From Patescibacteria group bacterium (lineage in GTDB: Bacteria; Patescibacteriota; Minisyncoccia; Phycocordibacterales; PALSA-1337): a stretch of 64,000 nt of DNA. The translations under genes and the position numbers were made by a program. The notes beneath the pieces are model-generated. The model was given only the letters and a program-made list of their open reading frames with translations, had not been told where the DNA came from and made no database searches. Each line of letters begins with the position of its first letter. The stretch's first letter is position 1. The DNA lies in contig JBBTRB010000003.1 of the NCBI GenBank assembly GCA_038065395.1, forward strand, positions 19,851 to 83,850. The letters are read 5' to 3'. Shown here piece by piece: positions 6,530 to 36,051 of this stretch.

Positions 6530-7858
6530 CTACTGAATCTTCCCTACCAGATACTCTACCAACTTATCTTCTGCGATACGCTCCTGCGTGCCACTATCAC
6601 GATCGCGTACGGTGACACCTTCTCCTTTTTCGATCGTCTCAAAGTCGACAGTAACGCAAAACGGTGTACCGATCTCATCTTGACGGCGATAACGTTTGCC
6701 GATGTTACCGTTGTCGTCGAAGATAACTCCGGGGATGTTGGCTTTTAGCGTAGAGAATACTTCTTGGGCTTTCTTGATGAGCTCAGGTTTATTCCTGAGC
6801 AGTGGAAAAACTGCCACTTTGTATGGTGCAACTGATGGGGTCAGTTTGAGATAGGTGCGTTTCTCGCCACCCATATCATCCTCGGTATAGGCATCAGTGA
6901 GAACCGCAAGTACGGTGCGGTCGAGACCAAATGATGGTTCGATGCAATGTGGGACGAACCTCTCTTTGCTCTCTTCGTCATAGTATGACAAATCTACCTT
7001 ACTAAATTCAGAGTGTTGCTTGAGGTCGAAGTCCGTGCGATACGCCAGACCATAGAGCTCTTTCTTGCCAAATGGGAAATCGAATTCGAAGTCGATCGTT
7101 CTCTTGGAATAGTGTGCCCTGTCACCGTCGGCAACTTCGAGTTCATGGACTTTGGCAGCGTTGAGTCCCACGTCTTTGGTGAAAGCCAAGACTTCCTGTC
7201 TGAAATGTTCGAAGGTTTTCTCCCACTCTTTTGGGTTGACGAAATACTCGATCTCCATTTGTTCGAACTCACGTGCACGGAACAAGAAATCTCGTGGAGC
7301 GATCTCGTTGCGGAATGCCTTGCCGATCTGTGCCATACCGAATGGCAGTTTCGGATGCAGTGAGTCAAGGATATTCTTGAAGTTCACGAACATACCTTGA
7401 GCTGTCTCTGGGCGCAGATACGACACCGATGAAGAGTCGTTACTTGCTCCGACCTGTGTCTTGAACATCATGTTGAAAGACTTCACCGGTTCCCAAGAAT
7501 TCTTGGTCTCACACTCAGGACAACTATCTGGCAACTGCCAACTCTTGTCTCCTGCTTGTGTGCCGATCTGATCCGCACGAAAACGATGTTTGCACTTTTT
7601 GCACTCTACGAGTGGATCGGCGAAGCCAGAGACGTGACCGGAGGCTTCCCAGGTACGCTGATTCATCAGGATCGCTGCGTCCATACCATACATATCGTCA
7701 CGAGTATCGACGAAACGTTTCCACCAGATCTGTTTGATATTGTTCTTGAGAGCAACTCCCAGTGGCCCATAATCCCAGGTACCAGCCAAGCCTCCATAAA
7801 CTTCCGATCCCTGAAAAATAAAACCTCTGCGTTTACAGAGAGCCACCAACGATTCCAT
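6530..7858 (-). CDS. glyQS: glycine--tRNA ligase (homodimeric GlyQS type)
   Basis: MESLVALCKRRGFIFQGSEVYGGLAGTWDYGPLG is the canonical class II GlyRS N-terminus. Start placed at the ATG preceded by an AAAGAGGA RBS; the ORF extends to 7885. Confidence 0.9.
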   Translation of the reverse strand: MESLVALCKRRGFIFQGSEVYGGLAGTWDYGPLGVALKNNIKQIWWKRFVDTRDDMYGMDAAILMNQRTWEASGHVSGFADPLVECKKCKHRFRADQIGTQAGDKSWQLPDSCPECETKNSWEPVKSFNMMFKTQVGASNDSSSVSYLRPETAQGMFVNFKNILDSLHPKLPFGMAQIGKAFRNEIAPRDFLFRAREFEQMEIEYFVNPKEWEKTFEHFRQEVLAFTKDVGLNAAKVHELEVADGDRAHYSKRTIDFEFDFPFGKKELYGLAYRTDFDLKQHSEFSKVDLSYYDEESKERFVPHCIEPSFGLDRTVLAVLTDAYTEDDMGGEKRTYLKLTPSVAPYKVAVFPLLRNKPELIKKAQEVFSTLKANIPGVIFDDNGNIGKRYRRQDEIGTPFCVTVDFETIEKGEGVTVRDRDSGTQERIAEDKLVEYLVGKIQ

Positions 7859-7892
7859 TGTGTCCTCTTTTTTCATATGTCGCATTGTATAC

Positions 7893-7923
7893 GAAAAAAG
7901 CCAGGACGGGAAGCGTCTTGGCT
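7893..7923 (-). terminator. leader-region intrinsic terminator immediately upstream of the glyQS RBS
   Basis: Minus strand reads AGCCAAGACG-CUUCCC-CGUCCUGGCU plus UUUUUU, about 30 nt before the start codon. Confidence 0.5.
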
Positions 7924-8239
7924 TGGAAAGTCACCCTCCCGTTCGATGTAGTACACCAGCGAGGAACCTTATCCGAAGGAGAACAAATTAACCTTCGGAG
8001 GCAAATGCCAGTAGAACGATCGGAACGGAAGGGTCCTGGTGGACGCCAGGAAAGTGGACCCGTCTTCAGAGAATACATTTTGGAGGTGGCGAGGAACCAG
8101 TCCTGGGATGTTGTCTGAAGACGGGCGGTATCACACTGAGGAGCACAAGATGTTATCACAACTCTGGTGGAGTTGGTCCAAACAACCTCTCGCGTCGTCA
8201 ACCCATATGACACCTAAAGGGTTCAAAGAATCTGACAGC
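7924..8239 (-). promoter_or_regulatory. long structured 5' leader of glyQS; candidate T-box-like attenuator
   Basis: About 345 nt between the promoter and the start, with several perfect hairpins. An alternative helix GGGAGGG...CCCGUCC overlaps the terminator 3' strand. The canonical T-box motif was not confirmed. Confidence 0.3.
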
Positions 8240-8269
8240 AGTATAACCGATATTAGGGATTTGTCAATA
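8240..8269 (-). promoter_or_regulatory. sigma70-like promoter for glyQS leader
   Basis: Minus strand reads TTGACA, a 16-17 nt spacer, then TATACT. Confidence 0.45.
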
Positions 8270-8677
8270 TTTTGCCAGATCTTGGCTCTGATCTTGCATT
8301 TTCCGTATGTCATATGACCACATATCCCCACCCTGCATAGCCATCGATATGAGTGCAACCATGAGGCCAAAATCTCGCACGCCCGTCGGTGTATATCCGA
8401 CCGACATGACTATCCCAGCCATATGGAGAGCCAGAAGCCCTGCAATGATCCTCACCCGAAATCCGACGAGGAGAAGTATCCCTGCAACCACTTCGAAAAG
8501 TCCGTTGAGTTTGATGAATGCAATAGCTGAGAGTGGCAACGAACCTGCCCAGTCAGGCAAGAATCCCGTCCACTTCTCAGGATGAAGGAGTTGTTGCGAT
8601 CCGAACCATACCATGACGAGCGTGATGCCTATACGGAGAACGACAGGAGCATATGACTTGAGCGTACTGGACTGCAT
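8264..8677 (-). CDS. DoxX family membrane protein
   Basis: MQSSTLKSYAPVVLRIGITLVMVWFGSQQL... with several TM segments. Start chosen at the internal ATG 8675-8677 directly after the stop of the upstream gene. Confidence 0.6.
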   Translation of the reverse strand: MQSSTLKSYAPVVLRIGITLVMVWFGSQQLLHPEKWTGFLPDWAGSLPLSAIAFIKLNGLFEVVAGILLLVGFRVRIIAGLLALHMAGIVMSVGYTPTGVRDFGLMVALISMAMQGGDMWSYDIRKMQDQSQDLAKY

Positions 8678-8678
8678 A

Positions 8679-9128
8679 TTATTTGAGTTCGCCGAGATAG
8701 AACTTGGTGAGCACGTTCGCTGGCGCCCCCTGACCACCATGTTGACCATTGAATGCGGCCGTGCCGTCCTTGCCACAGATCGAGAGTATCGCCTGCTCTC
8801 CACCTGGATGGTTACCGATCCATGAAGTCAGGTTGTAAACTTTGGCATTGATAGCACTCCAACAGTCGGTCTTGGATGCATGTGCTCCAACTTCGACCAT
8901 GGAATATGTCTTGACGGTACTTGTAGCTACTATCTGAGAACTTACCGAGACAGGAACCTTGACCGTAGGGATGCTCGTTGTACTGGTTGCAGTAGAAGTA
9001 ACAGGCGTAGTCGTCGCCACATTCTGCTCAACAGGTATAGTAACTGACACCTTGGAATCATTAGTGACTATATAGACACCACCTCCGATAAGGACAAGTA
9101 TGACGATGATTGAAATTATTTTTGACAT
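8679..9128 (-). CDS. membrane-anchored cytochrome b5-like heme-binding domain protein
   Basis: N-terminal TM helix, Thr/Ser-rich linker, and a C-terminal NHPGGEQAILSICGKDGTAAF (HPGG motif). Confidence 0.6.
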   Translation of the reverse strand: MSKIISIIVILVLIGGGVYIVTNDSKVSVTIPVEQNVATTTPVTSTATSTTSIPTVKVPVSVSSQIVATSTVKTYSMVEVGAHASKTDCWSAINAKVYNLTSWIGNHPGGEQAILSICGKDGTAAFNGQHGGQGAPANVLTKFYLGELK

Positions 9129-9140
9129 AAATCTATTATA

Positions 9141-11111
9141 CTATGGGTTTACATTCTCATCCCTCTCTCGATAGGCAGGATCGGTACTAAAGCGAGTGGT
9201 GATAGAGTCATGAGTACTTTCGAGCATACTCCCGGTAAAGTCGTCTATTGCCGTCAGCCGAGACTGATCTACGAGTATCGGCGCCTGCCCTACCAAGTTG
9301 ACCCCCGGCTCAAGAGAAACTTGGAATGCAACCTCTTTCCTCTGCTGTGAACCTGTCGTACCCGCTGGGATGTTACCTACGTCCCAGGTTATGGTGCCCT
9401 TGTTGCTGTCATAGGTGACACTCTCCGACGCGGGCGCTATCTGCCCCATCCATTTTATATATGCAGGTACAGACGCGGTGACTTGTGCATTATGAACGGC
9501 ATTGAAACCACTGTTGATAGTCCATAGTACGGTATAGGTCGTCTCTTGTTCGGCACGTGGAGGTATCGGGCCCGTGTTCGTGAATGGTCCGACTGTACGC
9601 AACGACCGTCCCGACAAACTCACATCAGAAGCGACTTTGATATTCTTGATCGCGGTAGACGTGAGCTTTTCTGGTACACGAGATTCTTGATTGCGGTTAC
9701 CCGAAATATCGACATGCACCGACACGATCGGGTTGGTGAGTGATGTCGCCTTGCTATTGGTCGGGGTTATGGAGAAAGACACCTTGCCACTATCACCAGC
9801 CGAGACCGATCCGAGCTCGGGTACTGAGATCTGATTCCAGACGATCTCGTTGTCGGCAGAACGATACGTACCGAGATCCGGCTGGATCGCAGTCTTGTCA
9901 TACGCATTCCCCGAGAGTCGTGCAGTGATGTTCATGTTGGATATAGGCACCGAGAGGTTGTTGAACCATGCGACCTCGACGCGCGTCGACTCACCGAAAC
10001 GTGCCACGTAATCTTCTTGGGCTTCGTTATTATTGACATACACTTCTACAGAAACGAACGGCTTTTGGATGGAGAGTTCTCGCTCGACACTGGCGTATTC
10101 AGTACCAATATCCTCTGGGTTACGAGAATGTTGTGCTCCAACGCGGAACCGGAAGACGCGCACATCTGTATTCTCTCCTTGGACGACACCTCGTATGGTG
10201 ATGGTGCGTTTCTGGCCAGGAGGTATGTCACCGATCCTCCAGGTATCCTGATCGAATGCCACCTTGGGATCAGATGACAAGAATTGGAATCCGAATGGAT
10301 ACTCCGCCTTGAGCACTACGTTTTTCAAAATTTCGGCAGAATTGGAGGTGACGTCTATATCAAAATCAAACTCCTGACCCGAAGTCACCTCAGTGAAAGA
10401 AGATACATTGAGCCCGATCGGTGACGAACTGATGAGTACGTCGTAGCTGCGTGTCTTGGTGAATACTGCAGAAGACCCTTTGACCGAATACGTGACGATC
10501 ACTTCGATCTGTTTTTGTAGATTCTCTTCACCGAATATCACTGCTTCGACGGTCTTATCGAGAGAGCGACCAGCGGGTATGTCACCGAGGAGTTCTTTGA
10601 AGATCTTGAGTTCTTTGGAAGTATCTTTGGGGTCGATCGTTCCATCAGGAAATGCTACTGCCAGATCCACAACCTGCAGGTCGACGTTGTTCTTGTTGGC
10701 AACCTTGATATCGAACTTGATGGGCTCCCCTCCTGAGACAGATACCGGACCGTTGATGACGATGTCGATATTGTCGGCAGAGATGAGGTTGGCCCCTTGG
10801 AAGAAAAGAAGTGCTCCGACACCGACCGCGATCGCGCAGAAGAGTGCAGATGCAATGAGTAGTTTGGTGAGAAATGACATAGGGATTTTCTCTTTGTAGG
10901 TTTCGTTAAGCTCGACAGGTTCGGACGGTGTCTCTACAGGACGTTCCCATGCAGTCGGCACCTCGGACGTCTTGTCAGAGAATCGTAGCTTGCGTCGCGT
11001 ACGCACATCAGGAGCCGATCGCGAATACAGCGACTTTTTGAGTTCTTCAATACGACCTTCATCCTCAGAGGGCATTGACTCAATTGTATAGTAAAAAGAG
11101 AAACCCGCCAA
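9141..11111 (-). CDS. large membrane-anchored extracellular protein (beta-rich, CARDB/DUF11-like repeats suspected)
   Basis: 656 aa with a single TM near residue 90 followed by a long Val/Thr/Asn-rich ectodomain. Confidence 0.55.
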   Translation of the reverse strand: MAGFSFYYTIESMPSEDEGRIEELKKSLYSRSAPDVRTRRKLRFSDKTSEVPTAWERPVETPSEPVELNETYKEKIPMSFLTKLLIASALFCAIAVGVGALLFFQGANLISADNIDIVINGPVSVSGGEPIKFDIKVANKNNVDLQVVDLAVAFPDGTIDPKDTSKELKIFKELLGDIPAGRSLDKTVEAVIFGEENLQKQIEVIVTYSVKGSSAVFTKTRSYDVLISSSPIGLNVSSFTEVTSGQEFDFDIDVTSNSAEILKNVVLKAEYPFGFQFLSSDPKVAFDQDTWRIGDIPPGQKRTITIRGVVQGENTDVRVFRFRVGAQHSRNPEDIGTEYASVERELSIQKPFVSVEVYVNNNEAQEDYVARFGESTRVEVAWFNNLSVPISNMNITARLSGNAYDKTAIQPDLGTYRSADNEIVWNQISVPELGSVSAGDSGKVSFSITPTNSKATSLTNPIVSVHVDISGNRNQESRVPEKLTSTAIKNIKVASDVSLSGRSLRTVGPFTNTGPIPPRAEQETTYTVLWTINSGFNAVHNAQVTASVPAYIKWMGQIAPASESVTYDSNKGTITWDVGNIPAGTTGSQQRKEVAFQVSLEPGVNLVGQAPILVDQSRLTAIDDFTGSMLESTHDSITTRFSTDPAYRERDENVNP

Positions 11112-11149
11112 CGAACAGTGGGTTTCCTGTTCGGGCGGGTAATGTCGAA

Positions 11150-11455
11150 TTATTCTGCCAGAGGCGAATGGAGCTCAAGCTCCAGCCCCTTACCAGTGAA
11201 GGCGGATAAGACGATGTTGCGGATTGAGTCATGAACACCCCCTCCTGGTTGAAGTAAGCTGAATTTTTTCAGCTCGTCTTCGTTGCTTCCAAACTTTTTG
11301 TAATCAGGATCTCTCTGACAAATCTGAACCAGATCGCTGACCTGAGTCACACCTGGAATTCCACAAGATTCCCAGAGGTGCTTGATTGACATCATCGTCA
11401 CCGTTACCAATTGCTCTGGTTCTTCAGCGCCATTTTTGAGTTTAACTGTTTTCAC
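11150..11455 (-). CDS. hypothetical protein
   Basis: 101 aa ORF with no recognisable motif. Confidence 0.35.
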   Translation of the reverse strand: MKTVKLKNGAEEPEQLVTVTMMSIKHLWESCGIPGVTQVSDLVQICQRDPDYKKFGSNEDELKKFSLLQPGGGVHDSIRNIVLSAFTGKGLELELHSPLAE

Positions 11456-11543
11456 GAAACAATCCTTTTGTTTGATTTTTCTCGGGTGATCCGAGTACTA
11501 TGGTTTCGGTATATATAGTAGCATATATAGTTACTTATGTCAA

Positions 11544-15758: not shown

Positions 15759-17498
15759 TTACATCCTCTCAGGAATTTTGATACCGAGGATCCACAGACC
15801 ATTCCTCATCACCGTTAGAAACGCTTTGGTTACTGCGACGCGATATGCGGACAACGGTTCCTTTTCATCGACAATAACATTCGTGGCGTAGAAGGCATTG
15901 AATGCTCCTGCTAGTTGGATCAAATATCCTGCCACATGTTGCGGTGCATACTCGGCACGTGCACGAGCGATGATATCTGGAAAACGAACTATCAGTCTTT
16001 CGAGAGTACTGACTTGGATAGACGGCATGTCCTGAATCTTGAATCCTGTATCTTGAATCTGTTTTGCCTTCTCCAGAACCGCTCCCGCTCTCACTGCCGC
16101 ATACTGCAGATATGGACCCGAGTCTCCTTCGAATGATACCGACGTCGCAGAATCAAAGATCACGTCACTACCTACGGCTTGACGGAGGATCGTGTATTTG
16201 ATCGCACCGATCGCGATCTCATCACTTACTTTCTCAGCTTCTTCGGGACCAAATTCTCTACCCGAAATCTTTTCTGTTACCAGTTCCTTGATATCATCGA
16301 TCAGACTTTCTGCAGCAATGATATTGCCTTTGCGTGAAGACATTTTCCCTGAAGCAAAGCGCAACATGCCATGACTCATGTGTTTGGTCTTGTCCCCGAT
16401 CTTTGGATTGACCAACGAAAACACTTTCAGAAGTACTTTGAAATAATCACTCTGTTCATTGGCAGTGATGATCACTGACTCATCGAGATCTGGATACAAT
16501 TCGAACTTTTTGCTGTTGAGGCCGAGCTCTTTGGTCTCGTAGGTTGGTAGACCATTGGAAGTGATGAAGACGCGTGTATGCACTCCATAGTCTTCTCCTT
16601 TGAAAATAGTTGCACCCTCACTTTCTATGAATACTTTGCCGAGAAATTCTTTGACGATCTGTACACCCGCATCGGCGACTTCGCTTTCGAAGAAAAAGTT
16701 ATTAAACTTCGTACCGAGACGCGCATAGATCGTGTCAAAATATTCGAGACTCCACTTCCTCCCTTCTTCATACATCTTGTTGATTTCTGGATCAGACTTT
16801 TCGAAGATCTGTTTGTTGATCGCATGTATCTCCTTCTGTGCCACCGCATCGTCTTCGAAAGCATTCGAACCGATCACGTACATCTCACCGAGCCATTTCA
16901 CCTTCTCAGTAATTGTTGAACTCTCTTGAATCTTAAATCCTAAATCTTGCCTCTTGTTTTGTATTGCCCAAATCGTCTTCGCCACATGCAACCCCACATC
17001 ACCCTGGTAACAGGCACGGACAACCTCTGCACCTGATGACTGGACCAGACGTGAAATAGACTCGCCTACTGCGTTCGACATCAAGTGTCCAATATGAAAA
17101 ACCTTGAAAGGGTTTGGGTCGGTATACTCGACCATGACCTTTTTGCTTTTCGAATCAGTCGCCCACCCATATTCCCCGTCACCACTCGCGATCTCCACTA
17201 CCTTCCCCGCAAAGACAGCATCTTTTATCTTGAAGTTGACGAACCCGGGACCAGCGATAGTGATCTGCTCCACAAACTCGAGATCAGCCTTCTCAAGTTC
17301 TGCGACGATCTCTTCTGCCAAAGCACGCGGGCTGACTCCCTTCTTTTTTGCGTACGCCAATGCGACGTTGGTAGCATAGTCACCATGATCCAGGCTCTCT
17401 GGATATTCGAGACGAACTGAGGAAGGGTCCGTAGTAGCAAGGCCTACCCTTGCAAGCGCCGTAACGAGGGCGGCAGTGAGTTCTTGACGCATATTCAT
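15759..17498 (-). CDS. argS: arginine--tRNA ligase
   Basis: 579 aa with HIGHLMSNAVGES (HIGH) and MSSRKG (KMSK) class I motifs. Confidence 0.9.
   Translation of the reverse strand: MNMRQELTAALVTALARVGLATTDPSSVRLEYPESLDHGDYATNVALAYAKKKGVSPRALAEEIVAELEKADLEFVEQITIAGPGFVNFKIKDAVFAGKVVEIASGDGEYGWATDSKSKKVMVEYTDPNPFKVFHIGHLMSNAVGESISRLVQSSGAEVVRACYQGDVGLHVAKTIWAIQNKRQDLGFKIQESSTITEKVKWLGEMYVIGSNAFEDDAVAQKEIHAINKQIFEKSDPEINKMYEEGRKWSLEYFDTIYARLGTKFNNFFFESEVADAGVQIVKEFLGKVFIESEGATIFKGEDYGVHTRVFITSNGLPTYETKELGLNSKKFELYPDLDESVIITANEQSDYFKVLLKVFSLVNPKIGDKTKHMSHGMLRFASGKMSSRKGNIIAAESLIDDIKELVTEKISGREFGPEEAEKVSDEIAIGAIKYTILRQAVGSDVIFDSATSVSFEGDSGPYLQYAAVRAGAVLEKAKQIQDTGFKIQDMPSIQVSTLERLIVRFPDIIARARAEYAPQHVAGYLIQLAGAFNAFYATNVIVDEKEPLSAYRVAVTKAFLTVMRNGLWILGIKIPERM
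16029..16055. repeat. 27-nt mini-repeat copy inside argS
   Basis: Coding strand caagatacaggattcaagattcaggac encodes QDTGFKIQD. Confidence 0.4.
16931..16957. repeat. 27-nt mini-repeat copy inside argS
   Basis: Coding strand caagatttaggatttaagattcaagag encodes QDLGFKIQE; 22/27 nt identical to the 16029 copy. Confidence 0.4.
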
Positions 17499-17650
17499 GT
17501 GGTGATTGTAGCAGAAAAGATCAGTCCTCTGTTACTTGACGTAATTGACATATCATGTAATTATGCTACCGGATTGAACTCTCTTTTGTTTTCCAATTCT
17601 TTCACCACAATAGCCTTTAGGCTGAAACAAGAGAACTTACATAGGCATGA

Positions 17651-18185: not shown

Positions 18186-18211
18186 CCCCGATATCTGTCG
18201 GGGTGTTTTTT
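18186..18211 (+). terminator. intrinsic terminator
   Basis: ccccga-tatctg-tcgggg followed by TTTTTT. Confidence 0.55.
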
Positions 18212-19409
18212 ATCTCCTCAAAACCTCATCTATCCTCTTTGCAATCTTCCTAAAATCTTTTTCCTTTTTGCCACGAGTCGTCTCTGCAGCAGTGCCGAGA
18301 CGGATACCGGATGGGTCAACTGCGCTGCGCGTCTCACCAGGGATGGTGTTCTTGTTCACGATGATGCCCACCTTCTCTAGTCGATCACTGGCATCTTTCC
18401 CTGAAATACCTTGCCCGCCCATCCAGGTGTCCATGAGGACAAGATGACTATCCGTGCCGCCAGAGATGATCTTCCAGCCGAGAGTCTTGAGTTCATCGGC
18501 CAATGCTGCAGCATTCTTCACCACCTGTGTAGCGTATTTTTTGAAAGCTGGAGTAGAGGCTTCTTTGAGTGCAACCGCTACCGCCGCGATCTGGTTGAGG
18601 TGAGGTCCACCCTGAAGTCCCGGGAATACCGCCTTGTCGATCAGCTCGCCGAAGGTCTGCTCTTTGCCTTTTGAATTTACGATCTTCTTATCAGTTCTTG
18701 AAAAGATCAGTGCACTGCGTGGACCACGGAGAGTCTTGTGTACCGTGGTAGTGACCACATCTGCATATGGGAATGGTGACGGATAGGCCTTGCCCGCAAC
18801 CAGTCCCGCGAAGTGCGACATATCCACCATCAGGATCGCACCACAGGCATCGGCGATCTCACGGAGCTTTTTGAAGTCTACCGTGCGCGGATATGCCGTG
18901 AATCCTCCGACGATGATCGCCGGCTTCTCGGACAGTGCCTTGGTCTTGAGATCTTCATAGTCGATAGTCTCAGTTTTGGGATCAACTCCGAACGGAACCT
19001 GGACCCACACCTTGCCGGTCATCGAAACTTTGTGACCATGAGTCAGATGTCCCCCGTGATCGAGTGACATACCCATGATCTTGCCTCCGAGCGGGACCAG
19101 TGCCAAATACACCGCCAGGTTCGCTGGTGATCCCGAGAGCGCCTGTACATTGACCTGCCACTCTGTAGGACTGAGACTGAATAATTTCAACGCGCGCTCT
19201 TGTGCCAGAGACTCGACCTTGTCGACGACCTGGTTACCACCATAATATCTCTTGCCTGGATAGCCTTCGGCGTATTTGTTGGTCAGTTCCGAACCCAATG
19301 CTTCGAGCACGTCTTTTGAGACTATGTTCTCTGAGGCAATGAGGTTGATGACGCTTTTCTGGCGCTTCTTCTCGGCATCTATGAGCTTTTTGATCTGGGC
19401 ATCTTTCAT
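18210..19409 (-). CDS. glyA: serine hydroxymethyltransferase
   Basis: 399 aa with TNKYAEGYPGKRYYGGNQVVD and the PLP-lysine context HKTLRGPR. Confidence 0.95.
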   Translation of the reverse strand: MKDAQIKKLIDAEKKRQKSVINLIASENIVSKDVLEALGSELTNKYAEGYPGKRYYGGNQVVDKVESLAQERALKLFSLSPTEWQVNVQALSGSPANLAVYLALVPLGGKIMGMSLDHGGHLTHGHKVSMTGKVWVQVPFGVDPKTETIDYEDLKTKALSEKPAIIVGGFTAYPRTVDFKKLREIADACGAILMVDMSHFAGLVAGKAYPSPFPYADVVTTTVHKTLRGPRSALIFSRTDKKIVNSKGKEQTFGELIDKAVFPGLQGGPHLNQIAAVAVALKEASTPAFKKYATQVVKNAAALADELKTLGWKIISGGTDSHLVLMDTWMGGQGISGKDASDRLEKVGIIVNKNTIPGETRSAVDPSGIRLGTAAETTRGKKEKDFRKIAKRIDEVLRR

Positions 19410-20568
19410 GGCGGCATTGTAGCATACCGATACAAAAAGGGGCCCACCTACTCAATCCTGAGAAGATGGGCCTTGAACTAAGAAGTTTTATGCAATCGTA
19501 TTGTTGAACTGAGAGACCCGAAACACTGAAGTCTGTAGATGCATGCCGGTGAGGAACCGTGGCGAGTAGTAAAACCGTAGCAAGATGTCACGGGGCACCT
19601 ATTGTTTCCAATTCAATCAGTCCGTCTCAGATAATACAACTTTCACAAGAATAGAAAAGGGCTCGCTGCACGAATGCAACGAGCCCGAATGCACGATCTA
19701 ACCAAGGATCGTAGTGGAGATGCGGCCCAATGGAACCGCGCAATATCTCGGCACAGACACCAGGAAGGGCGCTGACCGAGCTGCATCAGATTCAAACAAA
19801 GAACCGCACCTCCACATACAACTATAACCTATATGTGGAGAAAGTCAATGATTCAAGCTAGAACTTTAGTACACCTCTACCCCGTTCCACCCTTCGACCT
19901 ATAAAAGAAAGGGGGCTGCCATCTTGCGAATGGCAGCCCTTGTCTATACACATATGCTTTTAGACAGATCGATGCGCCAGAGAGTCCGAGTGATGCGCCG
20001 GGGGCGGTTGAGGGAACCTGAAGAGACCTAGTAGCTATAGGTCGGCATTACTCGGAACGACACGACCAGTCCGCCGACTATAATAGACCCTTCATCCCCA
20101 TGCAGTCAACAGGTTATCCACCGAGTTGTGCACAGGAACAATTCTCCGCAGGTTAAGAGCGTATCCACAATCTTCATATGCGAGGCAGCTTCGAGCGAAG
20201 ACTCGAGCCTTATTCCGGCTAACGAGGAGCGCGTGAATGTATCCTACATTCACAGCGTCCGAGTGAAGACGGGACAAGTGAATCTTATTGGATATAAGGT
20301 GAGAGTTTGAGCGAAGAAGATAACGAAGCAGATGGAGATTGTGGCCTAGCTCTAAGAAAAAAGACCGTCCCGAAGGAAGGTCTTGAGATTGGTCGGTGTC
20401 GAGGTCAGGTCTAACGGAACCTATGCAGCCAGGCTTGGTTGACCCAGGAAGGATCGGTCGAAGTACCCCCATATCTAAGTATTCTCACACAGGTCAAAGA
20501 AGATGGTTGCCACAATGAGCCCTCGACACCGGCCATAGAGAGTAGCGTGTTATGAGGATGAAGTCAAT
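19410..20568. other. ~1.15 kb ORF-poor hairpin-rich region; candidate large structured ncRNA or decayed element
   Basis: Only low-complexity short ORFs. Many perfect 6-10 bp hairpins. Contains one copy each of the 38-nt promoter-like motif (19878) and the 40-nt motif shared with 33783. Confidence 0.3.
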
Positions 20569-20991
20569 CTATTTCCCTGTACTACCAAAACCCCCTTGTC
20601 CTCTCGTTGTATCAGTAAGCTCTGAAACCTCCTCAATTTCCATCTGCTCCACTTTTTGGATAAGAATTTGTGCAACTTTATGACCAGCTTCAAACACATA
20701 TTCTTCTGCAGAAAGATTGATCGTACCAACAAGGACTTCACCCCTATATCCCGCATCAACCACTCCACCCAGTGTTTTGATACCCTCTTTTATAGCAATA
20801 CCACTCTTATCCCAGATCAGCCCCACATACCCTTCAGGAATCTCCAGAGCAATACCCGTACGAACAGCCTTTCGTTCCCCTGATTTCAGAATGGTCTTTT
20901 CCAGAGCATAGAGATCCAGGCCCGCATCATACTCATGTGCACGTGAGGGTAGCTTCGCGGCAGGATCAAGTTTTTTGATACGGAGGATCAT
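20569..20991 (-). CDS. dut: dUTP diphosphatase
   Basis: 140 aa with AGLDLYA, RTGIALEIPEGYVGLIWDKSGIA and GVVDAGYRGE motifs. Confidence 0.85.
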   Translation of the reverse strand: MILRIKKLDPAAKLPSRAHEYDAGLDLYALEKTILKSGERKAVRTGIALEIPEGYVGLIWDKSGIAIKEGIKTLGGVVDAGYRGEVLVGTINLSAEEYVFEAGHKVAQILIQKVEQMEIEEVSELTDTTRGQGGFGSTGK

Positions 20992-24668: not shown

Positions 24669-24727
24669 GATGGTGTTTATGAGTGTATCTTAACTTATCA
24701 TATTACACCTCATGCTACAATAATCCT

Positions 24728-25237
24728 ATGCAAACCTTCATCATCGCCGCCCTGTCAGCAGATGGATACATCGCTCGAGATGCACGACACGCTTCGCTCG
24801 CCTGGACGAGCAAAGAAGACAAGCGACGGTTCATCGAGCTGACCAAACGCGCTGGAGTTGTGGTGATGGGCTCGACTACCTATGCAACACTCCAGCGACC
24901 GCTCAAAGAACGCGTCAATATCGTCTACTCTACTTCGAAGAAGTTCGAGGGTGCCGAGACGACCAACAAACCCCCTTTCGAACTTCTGGCCGAGCTCAAG
25001 GAACGCGGCTTCAAAGAAGTAGCCATCTGTGGAGGTGCCCATATCTACACCATGTTCATGAAGGCCAAGGTCGTCGACAAACTCTACCTCACCATCGAAC
25101 CGATCATCTTTGGTTCAGGAGTCAGACTCTTCAACGAAGACCTGACCCATCATCTCAAACTCGTTGCCTGCGGACAGACCGAGGGTGGTGCGATCCTTCT
25201 GGAATACGATGTACTTCAGTCAGGAAACGTTGAGTGA
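24728..25237 (+). CDS. dihydrofolate reductase family protein
   Basis: MQTFIIAALSADGYIA...VVVMGSTTYATLQRPLKERVNIVYS matches DHFR N-terminal and NADPH-binding patterns. Confidence 0.65.
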   Translation: MQTFIIAALSADGYIARDARHASLAWTSKEDKRRFIELTKRAGVVVMGSTTYATLQRPLKERVNIVYSTSKKFEGAETTNKPPFELLAELKERGFKEVAICGGAHIYTMFMKAKVVDKLYLTIEPIIFGSGVRLFNEDLTHHLKLVACGQTEGGAILLEYDVLQSGNVE

Positions 25238-26638: not shown

Positions 26639-26662
26639 AAAAAACCCCTCGGGGGGATTGAT
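26639..26662 (-). terminator. intrinsic terminator
   Basis: Minus strand reads CCCCCCGAGGGG followed by TTTTTT. Confidence 0.5.
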
Positions 26663-26713
26663 ATATGCAGGATATCATTACGAATTGCCGAAGTCAAGCC
26701 TTTATTTTGAGAA

Positions 26714-35393: not shown

Positions 35394-35972
35394 TTATATG
35401 AGGGCCATCTTCTTCAACTCCTCGATCGCGACTGGTAGCTCTTTCACTCCGTCTGACTCTGTAAAGTGTCCCTTGCCTGACTCGACGATCACCTGAGCAT
35501 CGAGTTTGGCAGCGAACAAATCACGATTTTCCGCCAAGGAAACCTCGGTATCATTATCAGAGAAAATGAGAGTAGCTTTTTTGAGGACCTTCTTGATCTG
35601 AGCAAAGTTGATCGGATTCTCGAGCCATGGTCGTGCAATGTCTTTGTCCTCTTCGGTTTCGAGCTTCGCGAGGGTCAGCCACGGTGCAATGCAGACAACT
35701 CCACCAACATCGGTGATCTCTGGTGCCTGGATGTATCTGAATATCGCCTGACAGCCGATACTGTGCCCAATGAAGAACGTATTCTCATCTGGATACATCA
35801 CAACTGACTCGAGATGGTTGACCCATGCATCGACGGTAGGGCTATGTGAGTTCGGCATCTCGAGCACCGTCGTCTCGAAGCCAAGCTTCCTGCCCTCTTC
35901 ACCTAACCATGCGATCATCGGTTCAGTCGCGCTTCCACCCCAGCGATGTACGATAAATAATCTTTTATTCAT
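35394..35972 (-). CDS. alpha/beta hydrolase (YdeN/RBBP9-like serine hydrolase)
   Basis: FIGHSIGCQAI (GxSxG nucleophile elbow); 192 aa. Confidence 0.65.
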   Translation of the reverse strand: MNKRLFIVHRWGGSATEPMIAWLGEEGRKLGFETTVLEMPNSHSPTVDAWVNHLESVVMYPDENTFFIGHSIGCQAIFRYIQAPEITDVGGVVCIAPWLTLAKLETEEDKDIARPWLENPINFAQIKKVLKKATLIFSDNDTEVSLAENRDLFAAKLDAQVIVESGKGHFTESDGVKELPVAIEELKKMALI

Positions 35973-36051
35973 GGAAAGTAGTATAGCATTTCATATATTA
36001 AAAAATCTCCAGCACTGTTGCTGGAGATTGAGAGAGTACGTGACAACGAGA

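Follow-up and report, generated by a model that had tools for sequence, protein, structure and literature searches.

How is a glycyl-transfer RNA (tRNA) synthetase gene controlled when a near-consensus promoter, some 340 nucleotides (nt) of folded RNA and an intrinsic terminator stand directly before it? The question is raised by a 64,000-nt stretch of the genome of an uncultivated, ultrasmall Patescibacteria group bacterium (assembly GCA_038065395.1, contig JBBTRB010000003.1, positions 19,851 to 83,850; "the window" below, numbered from its first letter), in which the gene, glyS, lies on the minus strand. A first-pass annotation had called the gene glyQS and had suspected in its leader either a divergent T-box or another attenuator. 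Our best reading, tentative at a probability of about 0.45, is that the leader is a lineage-specific, three-state, non-coding and cis-acting attenuator of glyS transcription that depends on an effector and is found in a small clade of Paceibacteria (Patescibacteria, or Candidate Phyla Radiation).

Promoter, Transcript and Terminator

The promoter proposed in the first-pass annotation is borne out in 11 of 12 consensus positions: P1 (8240–8267, minus strand) consists of TTGACA (8267–8262), a 16-nt spacer and TATACT (8245–8240). Its predicted start is at about 8233, and its –35 element overlaps the stop codon of the upstream DoxX-family gene. Promoters with such a strong –35 element are rare, the 64 kb of the window holding 11 TTGAC[AT]-N16–18-TAnnnT sites. 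The –35/–10 arrangement is kept in every homologous leader, and counterparts of P1 (TTGACA or TTGACT, with TATACT, TATAGT, TAGATT or TACATT) occur at the related loci that we designate L163, L164, L165, L081, L173 and L001.

The transcript from P1 would end at T (7894–7924, minus strand), an intrinsic terminator with its stem-loop at 7924–7898 and its U run at 7899–7894. The hairpin, AAGCCAAGACG-CUUCC-CGUCCUGGCUU followed by U6, is worth –12.7 kcal/mol on its own (RNAfold); a simple terminator scan passed over it owing to a 1×1 internal loop. The U run ends 25 nt before a Shine–Dalgarno (SD)-like AAGAGGA and 36 nt before ATG 7858, so that the earlier claim of a terminator just ahead of the ribosome-binding site stands. 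All eight leader-type loci finish with a hairpin and a U run, and the same layout, promoter to terminator upstream of and co-oriented with glyS, is seen in seven loci besides the window. This position, with a promoter, about 340 nt of stable RNA and a terminator directly before the gene and in its orientation, speaks for an attenuator.

No conserved reading frame runs through the roughly 340 nt between P1 and T. A search for a leader peptide gave no conserved open reading frame (ORF); where relatives resemble one another, the resemblance moves from frame to frame and is seen on either strand. The leader does contain a mini-ORF, AUG GGU UGA (Met-Gly-stop, 8206–8198, minus strand), with AGGUG (8215–8211) ahead of it, which is not conserved in L163, L164 or L165.

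Fold of the Leader in the Window and in Its Relatives

Homologues of the leader were not easily found. Our first set comprised 160 glyS loci from species-representative genomes and metagenomes, with glycyl-tRNA synthetases (GlyRS) at most 78% identical to that of the window, and among these BLASTN and nhmmer returned none; in most of the 160, glyS begins 0–100 nt after a gene for a 645-amino-acid (aa) CLIPPER-like protein. Homologous leaders, which we call type A, emerged on examining the contigs of the closest GlyRS proteins. Besides the window, three close Paceibacteria lineages carry them, always abutting glyS: L163 (GlyRS 83% identical) has a leader of about 325 nt, and L164 and L165/L166 (GlyRS 80–81% identical) have leaders of 198 and 189 nt, respectively, from the transcription start to the U run. 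The gene upstream is not the same in each case, being DoxX in the window, the 645-aa CLIPPER-like gene at L163 and a divergent S9 peptidase gene at L165.

From about 8233 to the U run, the leader folds with a predicted energy of –130.8 kcal/mol (z = –5.76 against dinucleotide shuffles). The opposite strand folds more weakly (z = –3.61), and the leader helices hold G-U pairs that the other strand would lose. The long structured leader of the first-pass annotation is thus confirmed, on the strand originally assigned. For homologous type A leaders the fold has z scores of –7.8 and –3.2.

All type A RNAs are predicted to be a string of hairpins, comprising H1 and H2 (in the window and L163 only), H3, a long hairpin P4, a short linker and the terminator. 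On the minus strand of the window, H1 (8127–8214; in both the minimum free energy and the centroid structure) is a long irregular hairpin that forms, with H2, a 5′ accessory domain and is absent in L164 and L165. H2 (8058–8126) has a 13-base-pair (bp) closing helix, GCCCGUCUUCAGA/UCUGAAGACGGGU, and the apical hairpin UGGU-UCCUC-GCCA. H3 (8035–8050), CCUGG-CGUCCA-CCAGG, is small and occurs in all four type A leaders. P4 is closed by a CU-rich 5′ strand X, ACCCUUCCGUUC (8023–8034), which would act as anti-antiterminator, and a GA-rich, SD-like strand X′, GAACGGGAGGGU (7933–7944), which could pair either with X or with T; X′ can also make a small hairpin, P5, with CUUUCC (7940–7925).

Covariation was counted as columns changed on both sides, with a standard pair kept, among the homologous leaders. 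By this measure the X:X′ helix has double-sided changes in 6 of its 12 columns across the four leaders. Between the window and L163, 3 of 13 pairs are so changed in H2 and 2 of the 10 closing pairs in H1; H3 has one compensatory pair in five (L164 reads CCUAG/CUAGG) and the outer stem of the terminator one in six. The pattern of these changes clearly indicates that the leader RNA is under selection for its fold, which is kept in relatives with compensatory changes; the lack of conservation that would have told against the first-pass annotation is thus not observed.

We also considered by eye whether X′ might serve as the Shine–Dalgarno sequence of a small ORF; a suitable GUG ORF (MDFSSRLF) is present in L164 and L165 only, and the idea was dropped.

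A Candidate Helix Alternative to the Terminator

It had been proposed that GGGAGGG could pair with CCCGUCC and so sequester the 3′ strand of the terminator. In the best register, which overlaps that pairing, X′ ACGGGAGG (7942–7935) is matched with CUUCCCGU (7913–7906), the latter being the terminator loop plus the start of the 3′ arm of T. Across the four leaders this X′:T helix pairs in 32 of 32 cells, as compared with 52–69% for controls slid along the alignment. Two of its pairs are changed on both sides, from G-C to A-U, and these double changes fall in the loop of T, on which formation of the terminator places no constraint. When the leaders were aligned with MAFFT and folded with RNAalifold, X′:T, with a 4-bp extension over the 3′ arm of T, came out as the consensus of the 3′ module. 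The covarying helices thus predict that X, X′ and the terminator form a three-way competition of mutually exclusive pairings; together with the lasting linkage of the leader to glyS across rearrangements, they argue for an attenuator.

In the mechanism that we favor, P1, a promoter of the σ70 type, would start at about 8233 an RNA that folds into H1, H2, H3 and P4 and ends at T. In the OFF state X would capture X′, leaving T free to form, whereas in the ON state X′ would pair with the loop and 3′ arm of T and thereby block it. By default X:X′ and T would form and transcripts from P1 would stop as an RNA of about 340 nt. The terminator state is favored over X′:T by 16–20 kcal/mol, so that an effector would be required for X′:T to form. 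By keeping X off X′, or by stabilizing X′:T, such an effector would let transcription from P1 read into glyS; tRNA-Gly or a protein, for example GlyRS itself, might fill this role. The read-through would presumably add to a basal, probably leaderless, glyS transcript started at a proximal box, described next.

A second antiterminator candidate, in which the 3′ arm of H3 (CCAGGAC) pairs with the 3′ arm of T (GUCCUGG), was rejected, being available in the window and L163 and lost in L164 and L165.

The glyS Gene and Its Probable Proximal Promoter

The gene 3′ of the leader (6530–7885, minus strand) encodes a single-chain class II GlyRS of 442–451 aa, with the Pfam domains PF00587 (tRNA-synt_2b) and PF03129 (HGTP_anticodon). 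It is a GlyRS of the dimeric type and not glyQS, the name given to it earlier, as there are no separate GlyQ and GlyS subunits and one chain carries both domains. The protein called by gene finders (P0001) is 100% identical to one in assembly GCA_964357315.1, and its relatives are named glycine--tRNA ligase in metagenome-assembled genomes of Paceibacterota/Patescibacteria. The next gene downstream encodes an M16 peptidase.

The start region (7856–7885, minus strand) offers in-frame ATGs at 7885, 7876 and 7858, and the SD-like AAGAGGA lies at 7869–7863. ATG 7858 is the start used by gene callers, and ATG 7876 (MKKEDTME...) is a candidate leaderless start; the N-terminal MxKKEDxM is kept at the protein level in GlyRS relatives. 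Two nt after the U run of T and 7 nt before ATG 7876 lies a box, TATACAAT (7884–7891, minus strand), the putative –10 element of a proximal promoter, P2. In the four type A leaders the box between terminator and start codon, (A/G)TATACAATGC, is invariant. Boxes of the TATACAAT type that end 6–7 nt before an ATG are also found at L001, L173 and the leader-less locus L172, while other leader-less loci show TAGAAT, TATAAT or TATTAT at this position. Among 170 related loci, 97 have a –10-type box 5–9 nt before an in-frame glyS ATG.

The same layout is common among the other genes of the window. A TAnnnT ends 6–7 nt before the first ATG in 16 of 55 genes, and at 9 nt in 8 more; the typical arrangement is TGCTACAAT-N6-ATG. 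None of the 55 long ORFs has a GGAG, GAGG or AGGA core 4–12 nt before its first ATG, and the few leadered genes of this genome have GAAAGG 5–6 nt before the ATG. The genes of this window therefore look mostly leaderless, examples being the ORFs 15759–17531, 18210–19409, 24683–25237 and 35394–35990. Because the TATACAAT box fits this layout here and at the leader-less glyS loci, glyS probably has its own proximal promoter, and it is very probably transcribed also, or only, from that box as a leaderless mRNA beginning at ATG 7876, which is probably the true start. In favor of read-through from P1 are two features of the type A loci: P2 has neither a –35 element nor a TG extension, and the SD-like element puts AGG about 5 nt before the gene-caller ATG (7858), at the spacing seen in the few leadered genes.

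Comparison with Known RNAs and Weighing of the Alternatives

The position of the leader recalls the T-boxes of glyS and glyQS, which are well known (PMC4574755, PMC7583486). Known T-boxes all fix UGGN at the 5′ edge of the 7-nt antiterminator bulge, where it pairs with the tRNA 3′ NCCA (PMC7583486). At Rfam 15 gathering scores the whole window gave two tRNAs only; positions 7700–8500 matched neither the T-box model RF00230 nor any other family at E ≤ 10, and the leaders L163, L164, L165, L081, L001 and L173 gave no match at E ≤ 5. As the first-pass annotation had suspected, the canonical T-box sequence is absent, and the four-way alignment has no invariant UGG; UGGA occurs in the terminator 5′ arm of L164 and L165 and not in the window or L163. 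A GGC or GGU specifier, which had been suggested as a check, was not found either, there being no conserved GGN in a loop and the loops of H3 and P4 not being conserved. The sequence UUUCCAAG, looked at as a mimic of tRNA-Gly or its anticodon loop, is confined to the linker of two leaders, those of the window and L163, and none of the glyS loci retrieved, the window included, contains a tRNA-Gly gene.

With no model score, no fixed UGGN and no Stem I bearing a specifier, the leader is not a T-box. A divergent T-box riboswitch, in which uncharged tRNA-Gly would stabilize the antiterminator through a specifier codon and a UGGN bulge, would account for a long structured leader ahead of a GlyRS gene and for a terminator opposed by an intrinsically weaker helix that needs a factor. 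However, the long and short versions share no Stem I-like element, it is the loop and 3′ arm of the terminator, and not its 5′ arm, that the alternative helix occupies, and an extra strand, the anti-antiterminator X, is used that T-boxes lack. We regard this explanation as very improbable and already close to refuted. Of the two possibilities left by the first-pass annotation, the T-box thus falls, and the other attenuator is tentatively the best. A full-text literature search pairing "T-box riboswitch" with "Candidate Phyla Radiation" found no papers.

Nor does the leader belong to any other curated RNA family. No Rfam 15 model of a metabolite riboswitch aptamer, for glycine or other ligands, matched it, and the interior of P4 is not conserved. 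We rejected RNase P RNA, transfer-messenger RNA (tmRNA) and signal recognition particle (SRP) RNA for want of an Rfam match (ARAGORN found no tmRNA), and 6S RNA because no model matched and the leader does not fold as one rod with a bubble at its center.

The closest parallels are of design. The pyr leaders of Bacillus subtilis are three-structure attenuators (anti-antiterminator, antiterminator, terminator) bound by PyrR. Likewise, X:X′, X′:T and the terminator would be mutually exclusive here, with an anti-antiterminator, formed by default or stabilized by a factor, leading to termination; unlike the pyr leaders, ours has no PyrR-type binding loop, shows no sequence relation to them and precedes the gene of an aminoacyl-tRNA synthetase. 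The Escherichia coli thrS operator is bound by ThrRS and acts on translation initiation, not on termination; the analogy is that of a synthetase gene preceded by a structured RNA that its product could recognize. The X′:T helix (GCGAGAAG:CUUCUCGU, then CC) also resembles, loosely and as an impression only, an acceptor-stem minihelix.

Several findings weigh against a three-state attenuator. The covariation of X′:T comes from four sequences of three independent lineages, and its statistics were matched by shuffles in 29 of 500 trials. Forcing X′:T costs 2–10 kcal/mol locally, and over whole leaders the ON state lies 16–20 kcal/mol above the OFF state, although in L164 and L165 the antiterminator (–17 kcal/mol) is locally almost as stable as P5 plus T (–19 kcal/mol). 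Within single sequences, complementarity between upstream segments and the terminator is not above that of shuffles (p ~0.18; z ~0 for the window), and with RNAduplex and the best contiguous helix no single leader was significant, L173 being a weak exception. The competing helix of the first-pass annotation hence exists and covaries, while in any one sequence it stays at chance level. No sensor was identified among the homologues, because the P4 interior and the 5′ domain vary or are absent, unlike a ligand aptamer. Close relatives (L167–L172) do without the leader, and the box is present at leader-less L167, L169–L172 and L082, so that glyS need not depend on P1. The putative P2 box would itself be an independent promoter between terminator and gene, which an attenuator should lack. 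Finally, the window holds other units of promoter, structured RNA and terminator that cannot be leaders (see below).

The main alternative is an autonomous small RNA (sRNA) gene, made up of P1, a folded RNA of about 200–340 nt and T, whose product acts in trans or is simply stable; glyS would then be a separate, leaderless gene, its adjacency inherited synteny, and the terminator would also end the upstream operon. The canonical terminator and the large energetic lead of the terminator state suit this explanation, as does the TATACAAT box, whose spacing to ATG 7876 is that of the 16 window genes mentioned, in a window where no gene has a GGAG, GAGG or AGGA core at its first ATG, and is kept at glyS loci with and without the RNA. 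The element has its own promoter and terminator, is non-coding and has a structure under selection; its sequence turns over fast, its phylogenetic distribution is patchy, and three or four similar units stand in tandem at 19436–20570. Among bacterial sRNAs of the independent or 3′-UTR (untranslated region) type, the promoter may sit where the upstream gene ends and the terminator may be shared, much as P1 lies over the upstream stop codon. CU-rich motifs occur in the seed regions of known sRNAs, and such motifs (CUUYCC, UCCUC loops) recur here. On the other hand, no target and no conserved single-stranded seed could be defined, and a profile search of the window and 173 loci with the type A alignment brought up neither a further copy nor a paralogue. 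The RNA has stayed tightly linked to glyS through three different upstream rearrangements, and the terminator loop covaries with the internal strand X′, which would be needless for a constitutive terminator. We consider an sRNA gene a serious, if somewhat doubtful, alternative. A structured spacer or insulator without sensing, with T ending the upstream operon, the hairpins stabilizing its 3′ end and P1 incidental, seems to us improbable. In its favor, the upstream genes of the window and L163 have no other terminator ahead of glyS, and relatives that lack the element have glyS 20–90 nt after the 645-aa gene with no terminator between; against it, P1 is near-consensus and kept in every version, including L165, whose divergent upstream gene needs no terminator. 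Moreover, the covariation spans more than 300 nt of helices, beyond what a 3′-end hairpin would require.

An attenuator remains our preferred reading, and a more detailed version of it can be drawn. The leader would represent a new class of synthetase-gene riboregulator, a three-state switch unrelated to the T-box that reads glycine charging, via GlyRS or tRNA-Gly, on the purine/pyrimidine helix X′:X or X′:T and works alongside a leaderless basal promoter; the RNA upstream of glyA could share the same glycine circuit. We think this full scenario unlikely.

Irrespective of the actual mechanism, the annotation changes on three points: a single-chain GlyRS gene takes the place of glyQS, the T-box is dropped and the start moves, probably, to the leaderless ATG 7876. 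The genomes of Patescibacteria are tiny, and in limited full-text searches of the literature we came across no RNA regulator described from them. If the leader gates glyS, a synthetase gene would have acquired an RNA switch whose origin is separate from that of the T-box, in a lineage where most genes look leaderless. Should it be an sRNA instead, the leader RNA and the tandem units upstream of glyA would still rank as candidates for new RNA genes of an uncultivated clade. The system is small and testable, with four natural variants, a minimal version of 198 nt in L164 and defined strands X, X′ and T.

Analogous RNAs at Other glyS Loci

The same layout in unrelated sequence (strong promoter, long structured RNA, terminator, –10-like box and ATG) is found at L001 (2481–3012), L173 (19–315), L081 (1074–1357) and L087 (2337–2864). 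L001 and L173 have in common the hairpin CGGCUCGC...GCGAGUCCG, and UCAGnnUUCUUUGA is found at the 5′ end in the window, L163 and L173 alike. One strand of an upstream hairpin at L173, GGUGCCUGCG, could pair over 10 bp with CGCAGGCAUU, a segment of the terminator (p ~0.05). At L008 (2481–3000) and L009 (2497–3000) the long spacer before glyS seems to hold an ORF for a small membrane protein (~85 aa) rather than non-coding RNA; between this ORF and glyS come a terminator and, 6 nt ahead of the ATG, a –10 box. A scan of viral contigs for the terminator-box pattern found none.

In most relatives the 645-aa gene comes directly before glyS or before its leader; in the window a cytochrome b5-like gene and the DoxX gene (8264–9128) are inserted between them.

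Similar Units in the Window

Three or four non-coding units lie in tandem at 19436–20570 (minus strand), between dut (20569–20991) and glyA (18210–19409), whose product, serine hydroxymethyltransferase, makes glycine. They have TTGACT-N16–18-TAnnnT promoters at 20567, 20109, 19848 and perhaps ~19650, and each consists of a strongly folding RNA of 165–200 nt and an intrinsic terminator. The last unit ends just before the leaderless –10 box of glyA, a glycine-related gene, in the same layout as at glyS. Since the tandem units are followed by another promoter, they cannot be leaders, so that autonomous RNA genes of this design exist here. The region upstream of glyA had no Rfam match at E ≤ 10 beyond chance, and BLASTN and nhmmer searches with four glyA-upstream units found no similarity to any glyS locus retrieved. 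Paralogy of these four RNAs with the glyS leader was rejected, their shared 8-mers being at chance level. In the glyS leader the motif GGUUCCUC(G/A)C is seen twice, at 8088–8100 (the apex of H2) and ~7957–7968, and once in the glyA-proximal RNA (19540–19556), as CGGU-UCCUC-ACCG, beside a shared CUCGCCAC; it could be due to chance or be a common binding motif.

Two further units of the window start from strong promoters on the minus strand. At 11080–11543, TTGACA-17-TACTAT drives a leadered ORF of about 100 aa (GTG start, SD AAAAGGA), which is followed by a terminator and then by the leaderless –10 box (TATACAAT) of the 645-aa gene. At 26650–26697, TTGACT-17-TATCCT is followed within ~12 nt by the hairpin CCCCCCGAGGGG and T6, an arrangement that suggests either a regulatory hairpin or a transcript terminated very soon after its start.

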